In this document: in pieces, positions 44,119 to 50,026 of the stretch
Layout of the letters: every line of letters starts with the position of its first letter
How positions within the stretch are numbered: the stretch's first letter is position 1
From: an uncultured Candidatus Saccharibacteria bacterium
Lineage (GTDB): Bacteria; Patescibacteriota; Saccharimonadia; Saccharimonadales; CAIOMD01
DNA: 64,000 nt
Reading direction: 5' to 3'
NCBI GenBank assembly: GCA_964566135.1
Contig: CAZMHM010000004.1
Span: 12,596-76,595 of the forward strand
Program-made: the position numbers and the translations under genes
The notes under the pieces: model-generated
What the model was told of the DNA's origin: nothing
The model's input: only the letters and a program-made list of their open reading frames with translations
Databases searched by the model: none

Positions 44119-44868
44119 TTACAATTGCCTAGCAAGGTAGCTACGACCACCGGACAGCCACGCGTCGCTTACCAGTAATGATGCATATAAATCTTTATCA
44201 ACTTCATACGTTAGTTCATCACTAGCGATTAATGAGTCTGAGAAAGTAACCATGGTTGCATCTTCGGCAATTACAATTGGAGTCTGCTCTTGACCCTCGC
44301 CCATTGCTAATGTTGCTAAAGATGCGAGGTTCTGCGCGATGTTTGAGCGACTAATACGCATGGTTCTTCCATATAGGTCTTTTGTTCCGCGATAATCTTT
44401 TAGCGGCTCAAAGCCTGCATAAGCAATTGCTTGACCCACAGTGCCGAGATTGAGTGGAATAGATCGGCTGTCTACAGCTAGCACTCCGCATGTTCTTAGA
44501 TTGAATTTACTCATTAGACAGCCGCGAATTTCTTGTACTGTTTGCTGAATGTGGCTTGGTAATAGTACTAAACAATTATCGACATTTGACTCATCTATTC
44601 CTGCTGCTGCGGCAAGCTTGCCGCCAGTGATGGTGATTGTTGAGCCAAATGGATTCAGAGTTGAGGGAATATACCATTCGCATTCCGCGGCAATAAGGTC
44701 AACCTTATTGGTGTCTAGTGAGCATATATCGCTTTGGCAAAGCGCAATAATCTTACTACTTATGCAGACAACGGAGCCCTCGGCAATATTTGGAATACTT
44801 TTCTGTAACAACTCAAATAGATCATCGCCTGGGCTGACGAGTGGAGTTTTGTAAGCTGTTACTATCAT
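44119..44868 (-). CDS. CofE-like (F420-0:gamma-glutamyl ligase family) protein
   Basis: SSKIIALCQ and AAGIDESN resemble CofE-family blocks. About 250 aa, the family's usual length. Confidence 0.6.
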   Translation of the reverse strand: MIVTAYKTPLVSPGDDLFELLQKSIPNIAEGSVVCISSKIIALCQSDICSLDTNKVDLIAAECEWYIPSTLNPFGSTITITGGKLAAAAGIDESNVDNCLVLLPSHIQQTVQEIRGCLMSKFNLRTCGVLAVDSRSIPLNLGTVGQAIAYAGFEPLKDYRGTKDLYGRTMRISRSNIAQNLASLATLAMGEGQEQTPIVIAEDATMVTFSDSLIASDELTYEVDKDLYASLLVSDAWLSGGRSYLARQL

Positions 44869-44885
44869 GTTTAAACATCAAACTA

Positions 44886-45377
44886 TTATTGTAAAAAATG
44901 AGCCCAAGCTACGGCTGAAGAATCGGCAAACATATCTGGCATTTCTTTTAGTAATTGCACAAGGTCTTGCTTGGTAAACCAGCCAAGTTCCTCCACTTCG
45001 GACTCTTGGCGTTTTAGGCTCACATTGTTATCGACAATTAAACCGAACCACTGCACAAAATATGGACCTGTATTTGCCCTGACAAGCATTTTTTTAAGTT
45101 TGATTGGTTTTTTAAGTTTAAGGCCGAGCTCTTCTTGAGCTTCTCGAATGATATTTTCGTCATAGGATTCACCCTCCGTAACGGTGCCGCCAACCGCGGC
45201 GGCCCATTTACCTGGATCATGCTTTTTATCAAACGAACGCTGGGCAAGCAAAATATCGCCTGCCTTATTCGTGACCCATAGCGCGGATATGCGATATATA
45301 TCATCTTTCGTGATTTCGGAGCGTTTTTTAACACCAATTACTTCATCGTTTTCATTAACAATCTCAAGTCTTTCCAT
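44886..45377 (-). CDS. NUDIX hydrolase
   Basis: Nudix box GGTVTEGESYDENIIREAQEELGL. I chose start MERLEIV. Confidence 0.85.
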   Translation of the reverse strand: MERLEIVNENDEVIGVKKRSEITKDDIYRISALWVTNKAGDILLAQRSFDKKHDPGKWAAAVGGTVTEGESYDENIIREAQEELGLKLKKPIKLKKMLVRANTGPYFVQWFGLIVDNNVSLKRQESEVEELGWFTKQDLVQLLKEMPDMFADSSAVAWAHFLQ

Positions 45378-45398
45378 AACTACCAGTATACATACCAT

Positions 45399-45431: not shown

Positions 45432-45508
45432 TGGTAGCGGCGCCGGGGATCGAACCTGGGACCTTAGGCTTATGAGTCCTACGCTCTAACCAACTGAGCT
45501 ACGCCGCC
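45432..45508 (-). tRNA. tRNA with CAU anticodon, elongator tRNA-Met type, CCA encoded
   Basis: GGCGGCGTAGCTCAGTTGGTTAGAGCGTAGGACTCATAAGCCTAAGGTCCCAGGTTCGATCCCCGGCGCCGCTACCA. It folds as a cloverleaf but with a G1.U72 pair and mismatches at 31:39 and 51:63. Confidence 0.8.
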
Positions 45509-45561: not shown

Positions 45562-45598
45562 TAGACAATAAAACACCCATCGTGATGATGGGTGTTTT
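45562..45598 (-). terminator. Rho-independent terminator (10-bp stem) after the 26-aa mini-gene
   Basis: AACACCCATC-GTGAT-GATGGGTGTT, followed on the reverse strand by TTTATTGTC. Confidence 0.6.
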
Positions 45599-45621: not shown

Positions 45622-45702
45622 TTACACCAATAGTGAGTCAATACTCAAAATGGCTTGGTCGCTTGTAGGAGTAAGCTCATAGCTAATACCAATATCGCTC
45701 AT
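45622..45702 (-). CDS. Candidate 26-aa peptide gene with its own promoter, SD and terminator
   Basis: Manual translation gives MSDIGISYELTPTSDQAILSIDSLLV. AGGAG lies 7 nt upstream of the ATG. Confidence 0.35.
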   Translation of the reverse strand: MSDIGISYELTPTSDQAILSIDSLLV

Positions 45703-45757: not shown

Positions 45758-45786
45758 ATTGTATACATATTTTGCGCATTTGTCAA
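45758..45786 (-). promoter_or_regulatory. Near-consensus sigma70 promoter for the mini-gene
   Basis: Reverse strand: TTGACA (45786..45781), 17 nt, TACAAT (45763..45758). Confidence 0.5.
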
Positions 45787-45797
45787 GAGCCTTATGC

Positions 45798-46811
45798 TTA
45801 TTTTTTGTTGTATAAAATGCGTGTCAAAATTGCCGGTTTTGCGGCTGGCGCAAAGATATCTGCAGCCAATATAACATCGTCCCTGCCAGATGTTCCACAA
45901 ACCAAAGAAATAGTTGCCCCATTTAAGGCAAGAAGCGAACGTTCACCATCGCTAACCCATAACACCTGACGCTCGGATCGCTTAAGGCTTGTCAGCACAC
46001 TGACTGAGTTTGGTTTATCGACATGTATTAAGATTTGGCTGGTTAGCAAATCGCCTTGCTTTGTTTCGGCGTCATACACGAGCGCACCCAGTTCACGAGA
46101 TAATCTAGCAGCACTCGCAGCCTTAACAATAAATTTGCAATCAATATGTCGCGTTAGCTGCACTTTACGGATAATCTCAATCATTTCGTCATCAGAAACT
46201 CGTGCATCAACGACAACAGTATCGATTTTGCGATATTTAGAAAGAACGCGTTTTTCCTGCACGATTACACCAAATCGACGTAGCCGACGCGCAATCACCG
46301 CCCCCTTTATACCTAGCGTGACAGTTCTGGGCTTAGGGCTACTGTATAGTAGGGTTTTATTACCCCTCGCAACAACAATGCCGACTCCACTTCCGCCAGT
46401 GACAAAGCTGCCAGCAAAAGCCATATTCTTTTGCAGTTTCGGTATAGCCTGTTGCTTGATAGTAAATGTATTTTTCTGTGCCGGCAGTGGCTCGCCGGTA
46501 AGTCCATTTTGATTAATAGATAACAAATCTACGCTGATAAGTCTTATGTCAGTAGGCACTCGATTACCCGGTTCTAGCAAAACGATATCCCCCGGTACAA
46601 GCTGACGAAAGTTAATTACTTCTCGTTTGCCTTGGCGCAAAACTCGTACACTGAGAGCTCGTTGCTGTGAGTCTGATAATCGTGGATCAATGTTTGGTCC
46701 AAACTTTGCAAGACGCTTGAGAGCTTCTTGCTGCGACAGGCCCGCCATAGGGTCAACGTCAAAAAAGGCTCGAACTTCGCCTTCGGTTTGCATATACCAT
46801 TTTCTTTCCAC
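45798..46811 (-). CDS. Soluble P-type-ATPase-like protein (N-terminal, actuator and degenerate P-domain segments only)
   Basis: GLSQQEALKRLAKFGPN (Cation_ATPase_N), VPGDIVLLEPGNRVPTDIRLI...LTGEPLP...NMAFAGSFVTGGSGVGIVVARG (A domain with TGE), and VLWVSDGERSLLALNGATISL in place of GDGxNDxPAL. No TM helices and no DKTGT. Confidence 0.7.
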   Translation of the reverse strand: MERKWYMQTEGEVRAFFDVDPMAGLSQQEALKRLAKFGPNIDPRLSDSQQRALSVRVLRQGKREVINFRQLVPGDIVLLEPGNRVPTDIRLISVDLLSINQNGLTGEPLPAQKNTFTIKQQAIPKLQKNMAFAGSFVTGGSGVGIVVARGNKTLLYSSPKPRTVTLGIKGAVIARRLRRFGVIVQEKRVLSKYRKIDTVVVDARVSDDEMIEIIRKVQLTRHIDCKFIVKAASAARLSRELGALVYDAETKQGDLLTSQILIHVDKPNSVSVLTSLKRSERQVLWVSDGERSLLALNGATISLVCGTSGRDDVILAADIFAPAAKPAILTRILYNKK

Positions 46812-46899
46812 TAATGACCCCTTGCTTGCCTCTTGTTTATTGCGGTAGTGCTTATACCAATGATATAGTTTTTAGTAAAAGAGGGCAAAACGAAAAGTC

Positions 46900-47154
46900 A
46901 TGGGCACCGCAAACTTCGCAATCGCGAACAGTATTATTACAGACTTAAGCTATCGTGCCGTTGTTGGTGCGACAGTTGTATTATTCTTTTTGTTTTTACT
47001 TACTGTTCTGCTTCGACATAACGCGTATGTTAAGCAAATAGTTTTTTTACTCGTAGTAGCTACGGTGTTATTCGCAAGTACAATTTTGTTTACTACCGCT
47101 GTTGTCCACATGCAAGATACTGCGTTTCTACTAATTAGGACCATTGCGGCATGA
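46900..47154 (+). CDS. Small two-TM membrane protein
   Basis: Hydrophobic 84-aa ORF. ATGA coupling to the next gene. Confidence 0.5.
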   Translation: MGTANFAIANSIITDLSYRAVVGATVVLFFLFLLTVLLRHNAYVKQIVFLLVVATVLFASTILFTTAVVHMQDTAFLLIRTIAA

Positions 47155-47849
47155 CAAATACAAACCTTGTGGTTCTCACGCTTGTAGCAGGGTTATTGCT
47201 ATCCCTCAACCCGGTAAGCATGTCTATCTTCGTAGCACTGCTGGCAGGTTCTATCGGTAAAGGACATGACAAGCTGCGAACAAGCAGTACAGCGGTAATA
47301 TACCTTCTAAGTTTGTTCGCATTATATGCATTATCAGGCACCCTGCTCGTCATCGGATTTAACCTTGTCGAGCTACATTCTATTCAAAGCCTAAGTATTG
47401 CGATTGCAATTACTAGTATCATTTGGGGTCTTATGAATATCAAAGACTTCTATTGGTACGGGCCCAGAGACGATGCTCCAAAAGCAGTTATCCGCACCTT
47501 GCATTCGCGAACAGTAAAAAAGAATAGCCCTGCAAGCGCTATACTATTAGCCCTTACAGCCGCATATGCAACCTTGCCGAGCGTTGGCGTTCCTCTGCTA
47601 GCATATTCTGCAATTATTGCGCTGGTTCGTCCTGGCCTACTTAATTGGCCCGTACTTTTTGCACTTATGCTTATGGTTCCGCTTGTTGTTATTGGAGCAC
47701 TCGCGAGTACGGGCCTTAAATTAAGCGCCGTCATCAAATGGAAAGAAGATAGTAAGGCAATTTTTCGGCTATGCATGGGTCTAACCATGATTGTGCTAGG
47801 GTGGTTGCTGTTTTTACTTGTTAACGGGACACTGGAAGTAACACTATGA
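47151..47849 (+). CDS. Polytopic membrane protein, distantly CcdA/DsbD-like but without the conserved cysteines
   Basis: GLLLSLNPVSMSIFVALL resembles the CcdA N-terminal GLLSFLSPC block with Cys replaced. Six predicted TM helices. The family call is weak. Confidence 0.6.
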   Translation: MTNTNLVVLTLVAGLLLSLNPVSMSIFVALLAGSIGKGHDKLRTSSTAVIYLLSLFALYALSGTLLVIGFNLVELHSIQSLSIAIAITSIIWGLMNIKDFYWYGPRDDAPKAVIRTLHSRTVKKNSPASAILLALTAAYATLPSVGVPLLAYSAIIALVRPGLLNWPVLFALMLMVPLVVIGALASTGLKLSAVIKWKEDSKAIFRLCMGLTMIVLGWLLFLLVNGTLEVTL

Positions 47850-48115
47850 AACACATAGTTAAACGCAGAGGTGTTATAGAGACCTTTGATAACCGTAAAG
47901 TATATGCAAGTGTCTATGCATCATGCCTGAGCGTGCATGAGCCAAATGAAGCCGCCGAGCTGATTGCCGAAAAAGTCACGAAAGATGTCGAGGCATGGCT
48001 CAAGCCCAAAAGTGAAGTTACCTCGCACGATATCAGAACAGTTACCGGTAAATATCTGCAAGAAATTAATCCACATGCTGGCTACTTGTACCTGCATCAT
48101 CGTATAATGTGGTAG
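47846..48115 (+). CDS. Stand-alone ATP-cone domain protein (89 aa)
   Basis: IVKRRGVIETFDNRKVYASVYASCL...TSHDIRTVTGKYL matches the ATP-cone pattern. ATGA overlap with the upstream gene. Confidence 0.75.
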   Translation: MKHIVKRRGVIETFDNRKVYASVYASCLSVHEPNEAAELIAEKVTKDVEAWLKPKSEVTSHDIRTVTGKYLQEINPHAGYLYLHHRIMW

Positions 48116-48125
48116 GAAAACGTTT

Positions 48126-49517
48126 ATGTTTAAAACAAAATACCGCAAACCAATCTCATACGATTTTGACCTCATAGTTATCGGCAGTGGCGCCGGCGGT
48201 GGCATTGCCGCACATTTAGCAGCAGCCGAGGGCAAAAAAGTTGGCATTATTGAAGCGAGCGCCATTGGTGGTAGTTGCCCTAATTTCAACTGCATACCCA
48301 CAAAAGCGCTACTGAAAGCTGCTGAAACATTAGAAACAGTGCAAAGTGCCAACCAATTTGGCATTCGCGCTAATGCTGTTAGTTATAATTTTCGCTCAAT
48401 CCAGGCATGGCGTGAAAAAGCAGTTACGGCGACTGGCGTGCATAGCGAGTTAACGGCGTTTAAGTCGGAAAATATTACCCTTATTAAAGGACATGCCCAT
48501 TTTGTTAACCCGTGGACGGTGAGCGTTGGCTTACGCCGATATACTGCGCATCAATTTCTCGTTGCAACTGGTAGCTCAGCCTTTATCCCAGACATTACGG
48601 GCCTCAAGGAAGCAGGATATATTACGTCCAAAGAAGCGGGCCAGCTCGTTAAATTGCCCAAGAGCATCTTTATCATTGGTGGTGGCGCAACCGCATACGA
48701 ATACGCTCAGATTTTCAGCGCTTTTGGCACCAGGGTTCACGTTGCAGAAAGTGGTTTACATCTACTGCCTAAAGAAGATCCTGAGGTAGGCGACGCTGCA
48801 GCGGCAGCGCTTGAAGCGCGAGGCGTACGTGTGCACAGTGCGACCCGAGTTGTACATATAGGTGGCGGCAAGGGGCGCAAAGTTATTACCTTTGAGCAAC
48901 ATGGCCAGGAACATAAAATAGCAGTTGAAGAAATCATGGTTGCATCTGGCAAAACTCCCAATGTGGACATCGGCCTCGAAAACGCCGGCGTACACGCGAG
49001 TGAAGATGGAGTACGAGTAAATAAGCGGATGCGCACCAATAAAAAACATATTTTTGCAGCCGGTGACGTTGTTGGTAAATACTTAACAACACACGCGGGT
49101 ATGCAAGAAGGTCGCATAGCCGTGCATAACATGTACCACCGCAAACAGGTAGATATGGATTACGCTGCTATCCCTCGAGTATTTTACGGAAAGCCAGAAG
49201 TCGCCGTCGTTGGCAAAACCGAACACGAACTTAAGCTAACTGGTGAACTGTACCAAACCTCTATCGCGCCAATTGGCATATTGGGTCGCGCTATAACAAG
49301 TAATTACACTGCGGGCTTTGTCAAAATAACGGCAACTGCCAGCGGTATCGTAGTGGGCGCAAGCATCGTTGCACCCCATGCAAGCGAGATGATTAGCGAG
49401 CTTTCTTTAGCCGTAAACAATCATTTGCACGCTTGTGATATTGCCAATACAATCCATCCTTTTCCAACCTGGGGCGAGGCAATCCGCGTCGCCGCCGGCA
49501 ACATTAAGTGTATCTAA
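48126..49517 (+). CDS. Class I pyridine-nucleotide disulfide oxidoreductase (dihydrolipoamide dehydrogenase/glutathione/mercuric reductase family)
   Basis: GSGAGG FAD site, redox-active CPNFNCIPTK, GGGATAYE NAD(P) site and the C-terminal dimerisation motif HPFPTWGE. Confidence 0.9.
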   Translation: MFKTKYRKPISYDFDLIVIGSGAGGGIAAHLAAAEGKKVGIIEASAIGGSCPNFNCIPTKALLKAAETLETVQSANQFGIRANAVSYNFRSIQAWREKAVTATGVHSELTAFKSENITLIKGHAHFVNPWTVSVGLRRYTAHQFLVATGSSAFIPDITGLKEAGYITSKEAGQLVKLPKSIFIIGGGATAYEYAQIFSAFGTRVHVAESGLHLLPKEDPEVGDAAAAALEARGVRVHSATRVVHIGGGKGRKVITFEQHGQEHKIAVEEIMVASGKTPNVDIGLENAGVHASEDGVRVNKRMRTNKKHIFAAGDVVGKYLTTHAGMQEGRIAVHNMYHRKQVDMDYAAIPRVFYGKPEVAVVGKTEHELKLTGELYQTSIAPIGILGRAITSNYTAGFVKITATASGIVVGASIVAPHASEMISELSLAVNNHLHACDIANTIHPFPTWGEAIRVAAGNIKCI

Positions 49518-49678: not shown

Positions 49679-50026
49679 ATGGCATATAAGTTATTTGTTG
49701 GTAGCCTAGCATGGGCAACCGACGACGATAGCCTACAAGCAGCATTTGCACCATTTGGCACCGTTGTGAGCGCAACTGTCGTGAAAGATCGCGATAGTGG
49801 CCGTAGCAAGGGATTTGGCTTTGTGGAATTTGCAGATGACGCTGAAGGCAAAGCTGCTGAAGCTGCTATGAATGGCAAGGACCTCGATGGTCGTGAAATC
49901 GTTGTAAACGAAGCACGTCCACGCGAAGAACGTCCACGTCGTGATTTTGGCGGCAACGGCGGTGGTGGCGGTGGTGGATACCGCGGCGGCGACGACCGTG
50001 GTTCATTCCGCAAAAAGAGCTGGTAA
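49679..50026 (+). CDS. RRM-type RNA-binding protein with Gly/Arg-rich tail
   Basis: RNP2 KLFVGSL, RNP1 KGFGFVEF and a GGNGGGGGGGYRGG tail. Confidence 0.92.
   Translation: MAYKLFVGSLAWATDDDSLQAAFAPFGTVVSATVVKDRDSGRSKGFGFVEFADDAEGKAAEAAMNGKDLDGREIVVNEARPREERPRRDFGGNGGGGGGGYRGGDDRGSFRKKSW

Follow-up and report, generated by a model that had tools for sequence, protein, structure and literature searches.

A transmembrane-less pseudo-ATPase derived from a Ca-ATPase-like pump in a conserved Saccharibacterial gene cluster

P-type ATPases figure in textbooks as membrane pumps, and we know of no natural case in which their cytoplasmic domains exist or function alone. Micro-proteins regulate some of these pumps, as exemplified by sarcolipin and phospholamban for SERCA, MgtS and MgtR for MgtA, and KdpF, and in pseudoenzymes such as pseudokinases and pseudophosphatases purifying selection maintains the fold after loss of the catalytic residues. 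We found no description in the literature of a pseudoenzyme that derives from a P-type ATPase and retains the actuator (A) and P domains without transmembrane helices. Here we describe such a protein, 337 residues long, encoded in a 64,000-nucleotide stretch of contig CAZMHM010000004.1 from an uncultured Candidatus Saccharibacteria bacterium (hereafter the window). We show that it is a soluble, strongly basic pseudo-ATPase made up of three domains of a P2A (Ca-ATPase-like) pump, the N-terminal one, the A domain and the P domain, and that its gene is the positional ortholog of a ~900-residue Ca-ATPase-like pump in a conserved Saccharibacterial gene cluster.

Architecture and catalytic residues of the 337-residue protein

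The gene and the segments of its product are as follows.
45798–46811, minus strand: gene of the 337-residue A and P domain 'headpiece', with a GTG start at 46811 and the stop at 45800–45798
46677–46811, minus strand: residues 1–45, cytosolic N-terminal segment of P2-ATPases (Cation_ATPase_N, PF00690; aligned with SERCA 3–40)
46347–46652, minus strand: residues 54–155, A domain with PGD, GNRVPTDIRL and TGE (PF00122)
46257–46346, minus strand: residues 156–185, basic linker left over from stalk S3/S4 ('AVIARRLRRFG'; alignment with SERCA and pumps)
45801–46256, minus strand: residues 186–337, Rossmann core of the P domain without the N domain (alignment and motif audit)

In Pfam, E1-E2_ATPase (PF00122) matches residues 54–155 (E = 3.1e-22) over profile positions 6–94 of 181, which correspond to the A-domain half only, and Cation_ATPase_N (PF00690) matches residues 5–41 (E = 2.9e-6). 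The NCBIfam P-type ATPase models all match the same A-domain stretch with scores far under their cut-offs. A profile of the family of proteins of this short form is collinear with SERCA in three pieces, positions 4–41 aligning with 3–40, 56–181 with 128–257 (the A domain and stalk S3) and 253–309 with 667–723. The preliminary description of this DNA had recognised pieces of a P2-type ATPase, namely the N-terminus, the A domain with TGE and the end of the P domain, and had remarked on the missing transmembrane helices and N domain; the profile matches and alignments bear out both observations.

Alignment with the excised headpieces of pumps located the deletions. A short loop occupies the position of the M1–M2 hairpin, and M3–M4 is deleted with the A domain joined straight to the first P-domain strand via the basic S3/S4 remnant. 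This linker aligns with 'TPLQQKLDEFG' of SERCA and with 'ARRMAKKNALIR' of the pumps found in the gene cluster, and its net charge ranges from +2 to +10 across all short forms. The deletion of the N domain spans precisely the interval from the DKTG-equivalent to the DPPR-equivalent position, and no match to the N-domain family PF13246 was found in the protein. The chain ends with the last P helix, directly before M5 ('ILTRILYNKK'), and the positions of M1–M2, M3–M4 and M5–M10 are all deleted. No transmembrane segment is present in the protein, whose maximal 19-residue Kyte-Doolittle mean is 1.57 compared with 2–3.3 in pumps, and tblastn detected no further pump fragments elsewhere in the 64-kb window. 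The NCBI-derived gene call begins six codons downstream, at M7, and omits 46794–46811; two features argue for the GTG start at 46811, W5 being near-invariant in the family and the upstream 'VERKWY' being conserved in L178, the closest relative with available DNA.

Both halves of the Rossmann core are retained in the P domain, of which only the end had been recognised earlier. D202 aligns with the Asp of DKTG and D288–G289 with D703–G704 of SERCA, while 'CKFIVKA' stands where pumps have 'xxMITGD'. The reported replacement of DKTGT therefore applies to KTGT, which has become ARVS, and not to the Asp, which is still there as D202. Across 58 short forms this Asp is kept in 41, compared with 60 of 60 pumps, and is replaced by N, E, A, V, T or F in the other 17; KTGT is absent from all of them. 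The Glu of TGE, which the 337-residue protein retains, is kept in 24 of the 58 and the D703 equivalent (D288) in 27, and the equivalents of TGD, K684, N706 and D707 are gone. In terms of the HAD superfamily, motif I (DxDxT/V) is represented by a non-invariant Asp only, V229 stands at the position of motif II (S/T), the Lys of motif III is absent, and all that is left of motif IV (DD/GDxxxD) is G289, which does not vary in a 25-sequence alignment (A1) and is shared by 56 of the 58 short forms. The catalytic motifs I–IV of HAD phosphatases are accordingly not found as a set. The TIGR01494 (HAD-IC) model scores 42.1 bits, short of its whole-protein cut-off of 62.3, and the equivalog P-type ATPase models all score far below theirs.

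The A and P domains are homologous to, and collinear with, those of pumps, which places the protein in the P-type ATPase superfamily. What marks a functional pump, namely DKTGT, a membrane domain of at least 6–10 transmembrane helices with an ion site (PEGL in M4, ligands in M5/M6), and an N domain (KGAPE), is missing. Since the catalytic residues are not conserved, the family is one of pseudoenzymes. Neither transport nor a Post-Albers cycle is possible, because the transmembrane helices, ion site and N domain are absent and KTGT, TGD, K684 and GDGxND are degenerate, and the protein almost certainly does not form a phosphoenzyme.

The AlphaFold2 model of the 337-residue protein has a predicted local distance difference test score (pLDDT) of 92.7 and a predicted TM-score (pTM) of 0.86. 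The top Foldseek matches of this model are P2 ATPases only (E ~1e-17), and the SERCA-sarcolipin (4h1w) and SERCA-phospholamban (4kyt) structures occur among the fold matches. Query-normalised TM-scores over the whole chain are 0.70–0.79 against E1 states and ~0.40 against E2 and E2P states, and the A and P domains are therefore modelled in an E1-like arrangement. The two remnants are thus predicted to pack together, a point that the preliminary description had left to structure prediction.

The short-form family and its origin from a full-length pump

A first search returned ~27 full-length relatives of the 337-residue protein (326–351 residues, down to 37% identity), and an exhaustive profile search yielded ~45–50 representatives (clusters at 50% identity) of 317–359 residues that match the short-form profile end-to-end in one stretch; true pumps match it in two to five stretches. 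A scan of genome contigs with the family alignment, which keyed on generic A-domain motifs, retrieved ordinary pumps only. Altogether, the same short form occurs in at least 58 diverse sequences of 317–359 residues, down to ~25–35% identity, with intact open reading frames (ORFs) and a constant architecture. In the 58-sequence alignment the A domain is the best conserved part, and the invariant or near-invariant positions are mainly structural ones of this domain (PGD, GxRxPAD-R, the G of TGE, K113 and G140), with G74, D75, R90, K113 and G140 being invariant.

The closest pair with DNA, the window and L178, shares 83% amino acid identity and shows a proportion of nonsynonymous differences (pN) of 0.110 and a proportion of synonymous differences (pS) of 0.843, the latter being saturated. 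The resulting pN/pS of 0.13 is even over the N-terminus, A domain, linker and P domain (pN of 0.116 in the P-domain region), and the adjacent membrane gene is looser, with a pN of 0.19 compared with 0.11. Distant short-form pairs have nonsynonymous-to-synonymous rate ratios (dN/dS) of 0.16–0.20 with saturated dS. Judged from these substitution patterns, the short-form gene is kept intact by strong purifying selection throughout a lineage of Saccharibacteria and has been repurposed; it is not dying. The preliminary view of a compact soluble protein, as opposed to a fragmented pseudogene, agrees with the monophyly of the family, its purifying selection and the confident A and P fold. That description had also named two signs of decay, a full-length gene at this locus in relatives and relaxed selection; the former is indeed seen, as shown below, whereas the latter is not (pN 0.11 vs pS 0.84).

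The short-form loci are arranged head-to-head, with the exception of one clade, with a four-gene operon encoding a ~76–92-residue protein, a ~230-residue membrane protein, an ATP-cone protein and a pyridine-nucleotide disulfide reductase. The operon genes of the window are given below.
46900–47154, plus strand: 84-residue protein with two transmembrane helices, a stub corresponding to the N-terminal hairpin of a ~260–350-residue Cys/His-rich extracytoplasmic protein
47151–47849, plus strand: 232-residue CcdA/DsbD-like (SfLAP) membrane protein with six transmembrane helices, both redox cysteines lost
47846–48115, plus strand: 89-residue stand-alone ATP-cone protein (PF03477, E = 4.2e-8)
48126–49517, plus strand: 463-residue FAD/NAD(P)H pyridine-nucleotide disulfide oxidoreductase with an intact CxxxxC (GGSCPNFNCIPTK)

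In the window, the genes for FtsH and TilS, two inserted genes with a tRNA, and the 337-residue gene share one direction, and the genes for the 84-residue protein, the CcdA-like protein without cysteines, the ATP-cone protein and the reductase follow in the other. In L101 and L110 the corresponding order is FtsH, TilS and a pump of 903 or 912 residues, and then, divergently, a protein of 322 or 307 residues, a CcdA-like protein with cysteines, the ATP-cone protein and the reductase. Two loci (L093 and L095) were looked up for Cys-containing relatives of the 232-residue protein, and both carry the same cluster with a ~900-residue pump. Furthermore, P0153, the best-scoring full-length pump in a library of 1.84 billion proteins, was predicted to lie in this cluster and was then found there (L097). 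The neighbours are orthologous as well as being in the same order as at the full-pump loci: the ATP-cone protein is 42% identical to that of the full-pump locus L095, and the reductase is 44–51% identical to its full-pump-locus orthologs (44%, E = 2e-120, for L093). The canonical cluster pumps possess all motifs and Ca-ATPase-type ligands in M4, M5 and M6, and their best NCBIfam matches are of the PMR1/SERCA type. The term 'relic' in the preliminary description is therefore historically right, a full-length pump being present at the same locus in L101, L110 and L097.

The short forms are monophyletic in 40 of 40, 15 of 15 and 15 of 15 bootstraps, and the named homologs belong to Candidatus Saccharibacteria, apart from one membrane-protein homolog named 'Patescibacteria group'. 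These results show a single origin of the short form, within a Saccharibacteria lineage, by reduction of the full-length pump that occupied this very locus. In the neighbour-joining tree the sister of the short forms is the very divergent P0174, a placement that is probably due to long-branch attraction. A link between L097 and the short forms through shared-derived residues received no support in a systematic test.

Some full-length pumps of this clade are themselves degenerate. P0153 (L097 6001–8721) is full-length but motif-dead, with TSDT, PEKL, DKTGM and GDGIRD and with the M5/M6 ligands replaced, and P0172 is likewise full-length and motif-dead, with DKSGV, TDD and GDKASD; both retain every domain and the transmembrane helices. 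A motif-dead full-length pump as a conserved intermediate was considered and rejected, since P0153 is the only fully degenerate protein among its 120 closest relatives and P0172 is separate, indicating that such cases are sporadic.

Joint reduction of the neighbours, charge reversal and a linked micro-ORF

The 84-residue protein matches the ~300-residue protein of the full-pump loci by BLASTP (E = 6e-6) and by hhalign (probability 93%, E = 2.6e-7), and the hhalign match ends just before the invariant Cys/His-rich domain of the longer protein. The 232-residue protein has a Pfam DsbD_TM match under threshold (E = 3.1e-5) and carries NPVSM and LPSVG where its relatives have NPCAI and LPCTG; a fold search with its model returned no significant match in the PDB. 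The possibility that the 84- and 232-residue proteins represent the split-off transmembrane domain of the pump was rejected, as they are homologous to the hairpin of the ~300-residue protein and to CcdA/SfLAP, respectively.

A census of 80 metagenome loci, together with the earlier loci, revealed that a core module of the ~260–350-residue protein, a CcdA-like protein with NPC and LPC, and the ATP-cone protein is widespread, with or without the reductase, and that full-length pumps of 800–975 residues adjoin it wherever the flanks allow. In the short-form loci that carry a CcdA-like gene, its product is Cys-less in 11 of 11, and the truncated first gene (76–92 residues) was detected in 10 of these 11, the exception being L092. 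Mixed states were absent from the census, in which neither a short form with a Cys-containing CcdA-like protein nor a full pump with a Cys-less one occurred. The three membrane components are thus reduced together in the short-form lineage, the pump to its A and P domains, the CcdA-like protein to a Cys-less form and the ~300-residue protein to the 84-residue stub. In the P0135 clade, the short form is accompanied by the reductase only, without the membrane genes and the ATP-cone gene, and has a different C-terminus lacking 'ILYNKK'. Replacement of the lost N domain by the ATP-cone protein was also rejected, because the latter is present in full-pump loci and absent from the P0135 clade.

The ~260–350-residue proteins form a membrane-anchored family whose extracytoplasmic domain has invariant GPVHWH..W.C, HEH.D.R.H.EG and PPGDC.I.E motifs and four invariant Cys; they are always encoded upstream of the CcdA-like and ATP-cone genes and are widespread in metagenomes (L099–L177). 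No Pfam family matched them and no literature on them was found. Examples from alignment A6 are L093 5213–6001, L095 5214–5999, L097 4953–5924 and L101 6027–6995. A third state of the cluster is seen in L112 (1232–6086), where unrelated genes, for a histidine phosphatase, a NUDIX protein and a 467-residue protein, hold the pump position, the CcdA-like protein is Cys-less (NPYSI/TPGNS) and the first gene is full-size with the Cys/His domain.

All short forms are basic, with a median net charge of +16 and a median isoelectric point (pI) of 9.6 (family range 8.7–10.3), compared with −3 and 6.0 for the equivalent segments of the cluster pumps. The 337-residue protein itself has a charge of +19 and a pI of 10.1 and ranks third by charge density among the 64 ORFs of the window. 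The gain is distributed over the A and P domains and their surfaces. Per 100 residues, the shift amounts to +5.4 for the A and P protein, the largest among the orthologs compared, +3.7 for TilS, +3.4 for the ATP-cone protein, +2.2 for the CcdA-like protein, +0.65 for the reductase and ~0 for FtsH.

Two non-coding or unannotated elements flank the gene, a micro-ORF with its own signals and the spacer that separates it from the operon.
45622–45702, minus strand: unannotated micro-ORF for an acidic 26-residue product, MSDIGISYELTPTSDQAILSIDSLLV, with an AGGAG Shine-Dalgarno (SD) sequence, ~96 nt downstream of the stop of the 337-residue gene
45758–45786: near-consensus promoter-like site of the micro-ORF
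45565–45597: terminator-like hairpin of the micro-ORF
46812–46899, no strand assigned: divergent spacer of 88 bp in which back-to-back promoter-like elements overlap, together with the SD sequence of the 84-residue gene

All 14 short-form loci carry the micro-ORF, those of the clade without membrane genes included; it has 26 codons every time, and its pairwise differences at codon positions 1, 2 and 3 (373, 212 and 567) follow a coding pattern. Among the relatives it lies at L178 2385–2465, L001 5931–6011, L005 9140–9220, L007 4299–4379, L088 5320–5400, L090 8144–8224 and L092 2152–2232. The product has a net charge of −3 to −5 and matched no known family, and the micro-ORF was not found in full-pump loci. 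At its position, 25–100 nt after the pump stop, L093, L097, L101, L110 and L127 have a Lys-rich ORF of 42–54 residues ending in a CxxC motif ('...AKEDNGDCAFC', '...SGGCEFC').

The core of the divergent spacer (46858–46895) is almost invariant at the DNA level in short-form loci, although synonymous sites in the coding regions are saturated. The promoter-like elements of the spacer are an extended −10 on the plus strand (TGATATAGT) and TTGCCC-17-TATCAT on the minus strand, and no Rfam family matched the spacer. A palindromic operator was considered and dropped, being perfect in L005, L006 and L007 only. The full-pump loci carry another conserved spacer element (TATATGCTATAT...AAGCATAAGC).

Two inserted genes and a tRNA lie between the 337-residue gene and TilS, and a further gene follows the reductase.
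44119–44868 and 44886–45398, minus strand: genes for an F420-0:gamma-glutamyl ligase-like protein (PF01996) and a NUDIX protein
45435–45508, minus strand: tRNA
49679–50026, plus strand: protein with an RNA recognition motif (RRM) domain and a Gly/Arg-rich tail, directly after the reductase

The TilS-side flank differs among relatives, with genes for HSP20, peptide deformylase, an esterase and others, and an RRM_1 gene occupies the position after the reductase in L002, L003, L005, L007 and L088.

Possible roles and comparison with known systems

The reading that we favour, which taken as a whole has in our estimate an even chance of being correct, is that the pump-derived pseudo-ATPase is kept as a cluster-linked, non-catalytic binding or regulatory module. 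Such a module would continue a cytoplasmic, transport-independent job of the pump headpiece in the ancestral cluster. Its cationic surface and stalk remnants would direct it to the membrane or to an acidic partner, for which the acidic 26-residue micro-protein is the best candidate. Its gene would be transcribed from a promoter region that it shares, back-to-back, with the operon of the cluster, and the two would be co-regulated. A narrower and tentative proposal, that the headpiece acts as a stand-alone, non-transporting switch or adaptor together with the micro-protein and possibly also with the ATP-cone protein, the reductase and the Cys-less CcdA-like protein, is in our view rather doubtful. 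Several observations weigh against the idea of a cluster-linked module. The whole locus is syntenic in the lineage, and adjacency may partly reflect inheritance and not function. The components are separable, as the P0135 clade dispenses with the membrane genes and the ATP-cone gene and L112 has the cluster without the pump. Part of the basic shift is lineage-wide drift, charge complementarity with the cluster proteins fails in that these are basic too, and we found no literature on the function of the ancestral cluster.

The charge reversal invites a different explanation, that the protein has been neofunctionalised as a binder of polyanions, either nucleic acid or anionic lipid, in a role unrelated to the neighbouring cluster. 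The family-wide pI of 8.7–10.3, the +19 of the 337-residue protein, the spread of the gain over the A and P surfaces and the retention of the protein in the P0135 clade without membrane genes or ATP-cone would all suit this role. However, in every locus examined the gene keeps its head-to-head orientation to the cluster and the promoter that both share, the 337-residue protein showed no nucleic-acid-binding motif and the basic drift is partly lineage-wide, so that we consider a cluster-independent binder unlikely. The preliminary description had suggested a decoy or regulator of a pump, which in its trans-acting form might, for instance, provide A-domain contacts to a separate full-length P-type ATPase encoded elsewhere in the genome or compete for such contacts. 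A fold that is a faithful pump headpiece, and the fact that Saccharibacteria do encode related full-length pumps (L059), are compatible with this suggestion. It is nevertheless quite improbable, given that no full-length pump lies within the 64-kb window, that the pump formerly at the locus is the very gene that was reduced, and that none of the 14 loci shows conserved linkage to another pump, the conserved associations being those with the redox/ATP-cone cluster and the 26-codon micro-ORF. We know of no precedent for A domains acting in trans.

Residual catalysis and decay fare worse. A HAD-type phosphatase or phosphotransferase using D202 in a non-canonical site could draw on the intact Rossmann core, on the alignment of D202 with the catalytic Asp (kept in 41 of 58) and on the correspondence of D288 with D703 (27 of 58), but HAD motif I past its first Asp and motifs II, III and IV are not conserved, the Asp itself is missing in 17 of 58, and there is no N domain for ATP binding; we regard such an enzyme as highly improbable. 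A functionless, decaying relic of the pump is scarcely credible. The full-length pump at the same locus in relatives, the degenerate catalytic motifs and the sporadic motif-dead full-length pumps of the same clade (P0153 in L097, and P0172) are what a neutral relic would lead one to expect, whereas at least 58 diverged representatives have intact ORFs of one constant architecture, the fold is predicted with confidence, and the start, SD sequence and promoter are conserved. The selection data, with a pN/pS of 0.13 uniform across domains, effectively refute this explanation.

A conserved protein of A and P domains without transmembrane helices or an N domain shows that the headpiece of a P-type ATPase can be retained for a use other than transport, and it constitutes a natural minimal A–P construct, apparently locked in an E1-like geometry. 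The reduction was a rare concerted one, in which three membrane components lost transport or thiol chemistry and two cytoplasmic partners stayed intact. The locus points to an undescribed pump–redox–ATP-cone system that is widespread in metagenomes of Saccharibacteria and the Candidate Phyla Radiation, with at least one archaeal-looking locus (L095); we found no description in the literature of a cluster of pump, CcdA-like, ATP-cone and reductase genes. It has also uncovered unannotated micro-proteins coupled to P-type ATPase genes. Were the switch or adaptor proposal correct, this would be the first natural pseudoenzyme system derived from a P-type ATPase without transmembrane helices, and it would reveal a transport-independent role of the headpiece already in the ancestral redox-pump cluster.

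Among described systems, the P2A Ca2+-ATPases (SERCA, SPCA1/PMR1 and Listeria LMCA1) and the cluster pumps (L101, L110 and L093) are collinear with the short form in the N-terminus, A domain and P core, and the cluster pumps share its genomic position; unlike these pumps, the short form has no transmembrane helices, ion site or N domain, and its pI is ~10 instead of ~6. The 232-residue neighbour resembles the CcdA/DsbD thiol-disulfide transporters (PF02683/PF11139), being 29–34% identical to relatives with cysteines, annotated as CcdA by JGI, and having the positions of the NP(C) and LP(C) motifs in common with them, but both redox cysteines are replaced and thiol-disulfide electron transfer is consequently impossible. 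Its loss of cysteines parallels the degeneration of the pump. The coupling of the 26-codon ORF to a gene derived from a P-type ATPase in 14 of 14 short-form loci recalls the micro-protein regulators; the known ones, however, are hydrophobic transmembrane peptides that act on the membrane domain of a pump, whereas the 26-residue product is a soluble, acidic peptide and the protein proposed as its partner lacks a membrane domain. As in pseudokinases and pseudophosphatases, the short form combines a conserved, selected fold with the loss of its catalytic residues.

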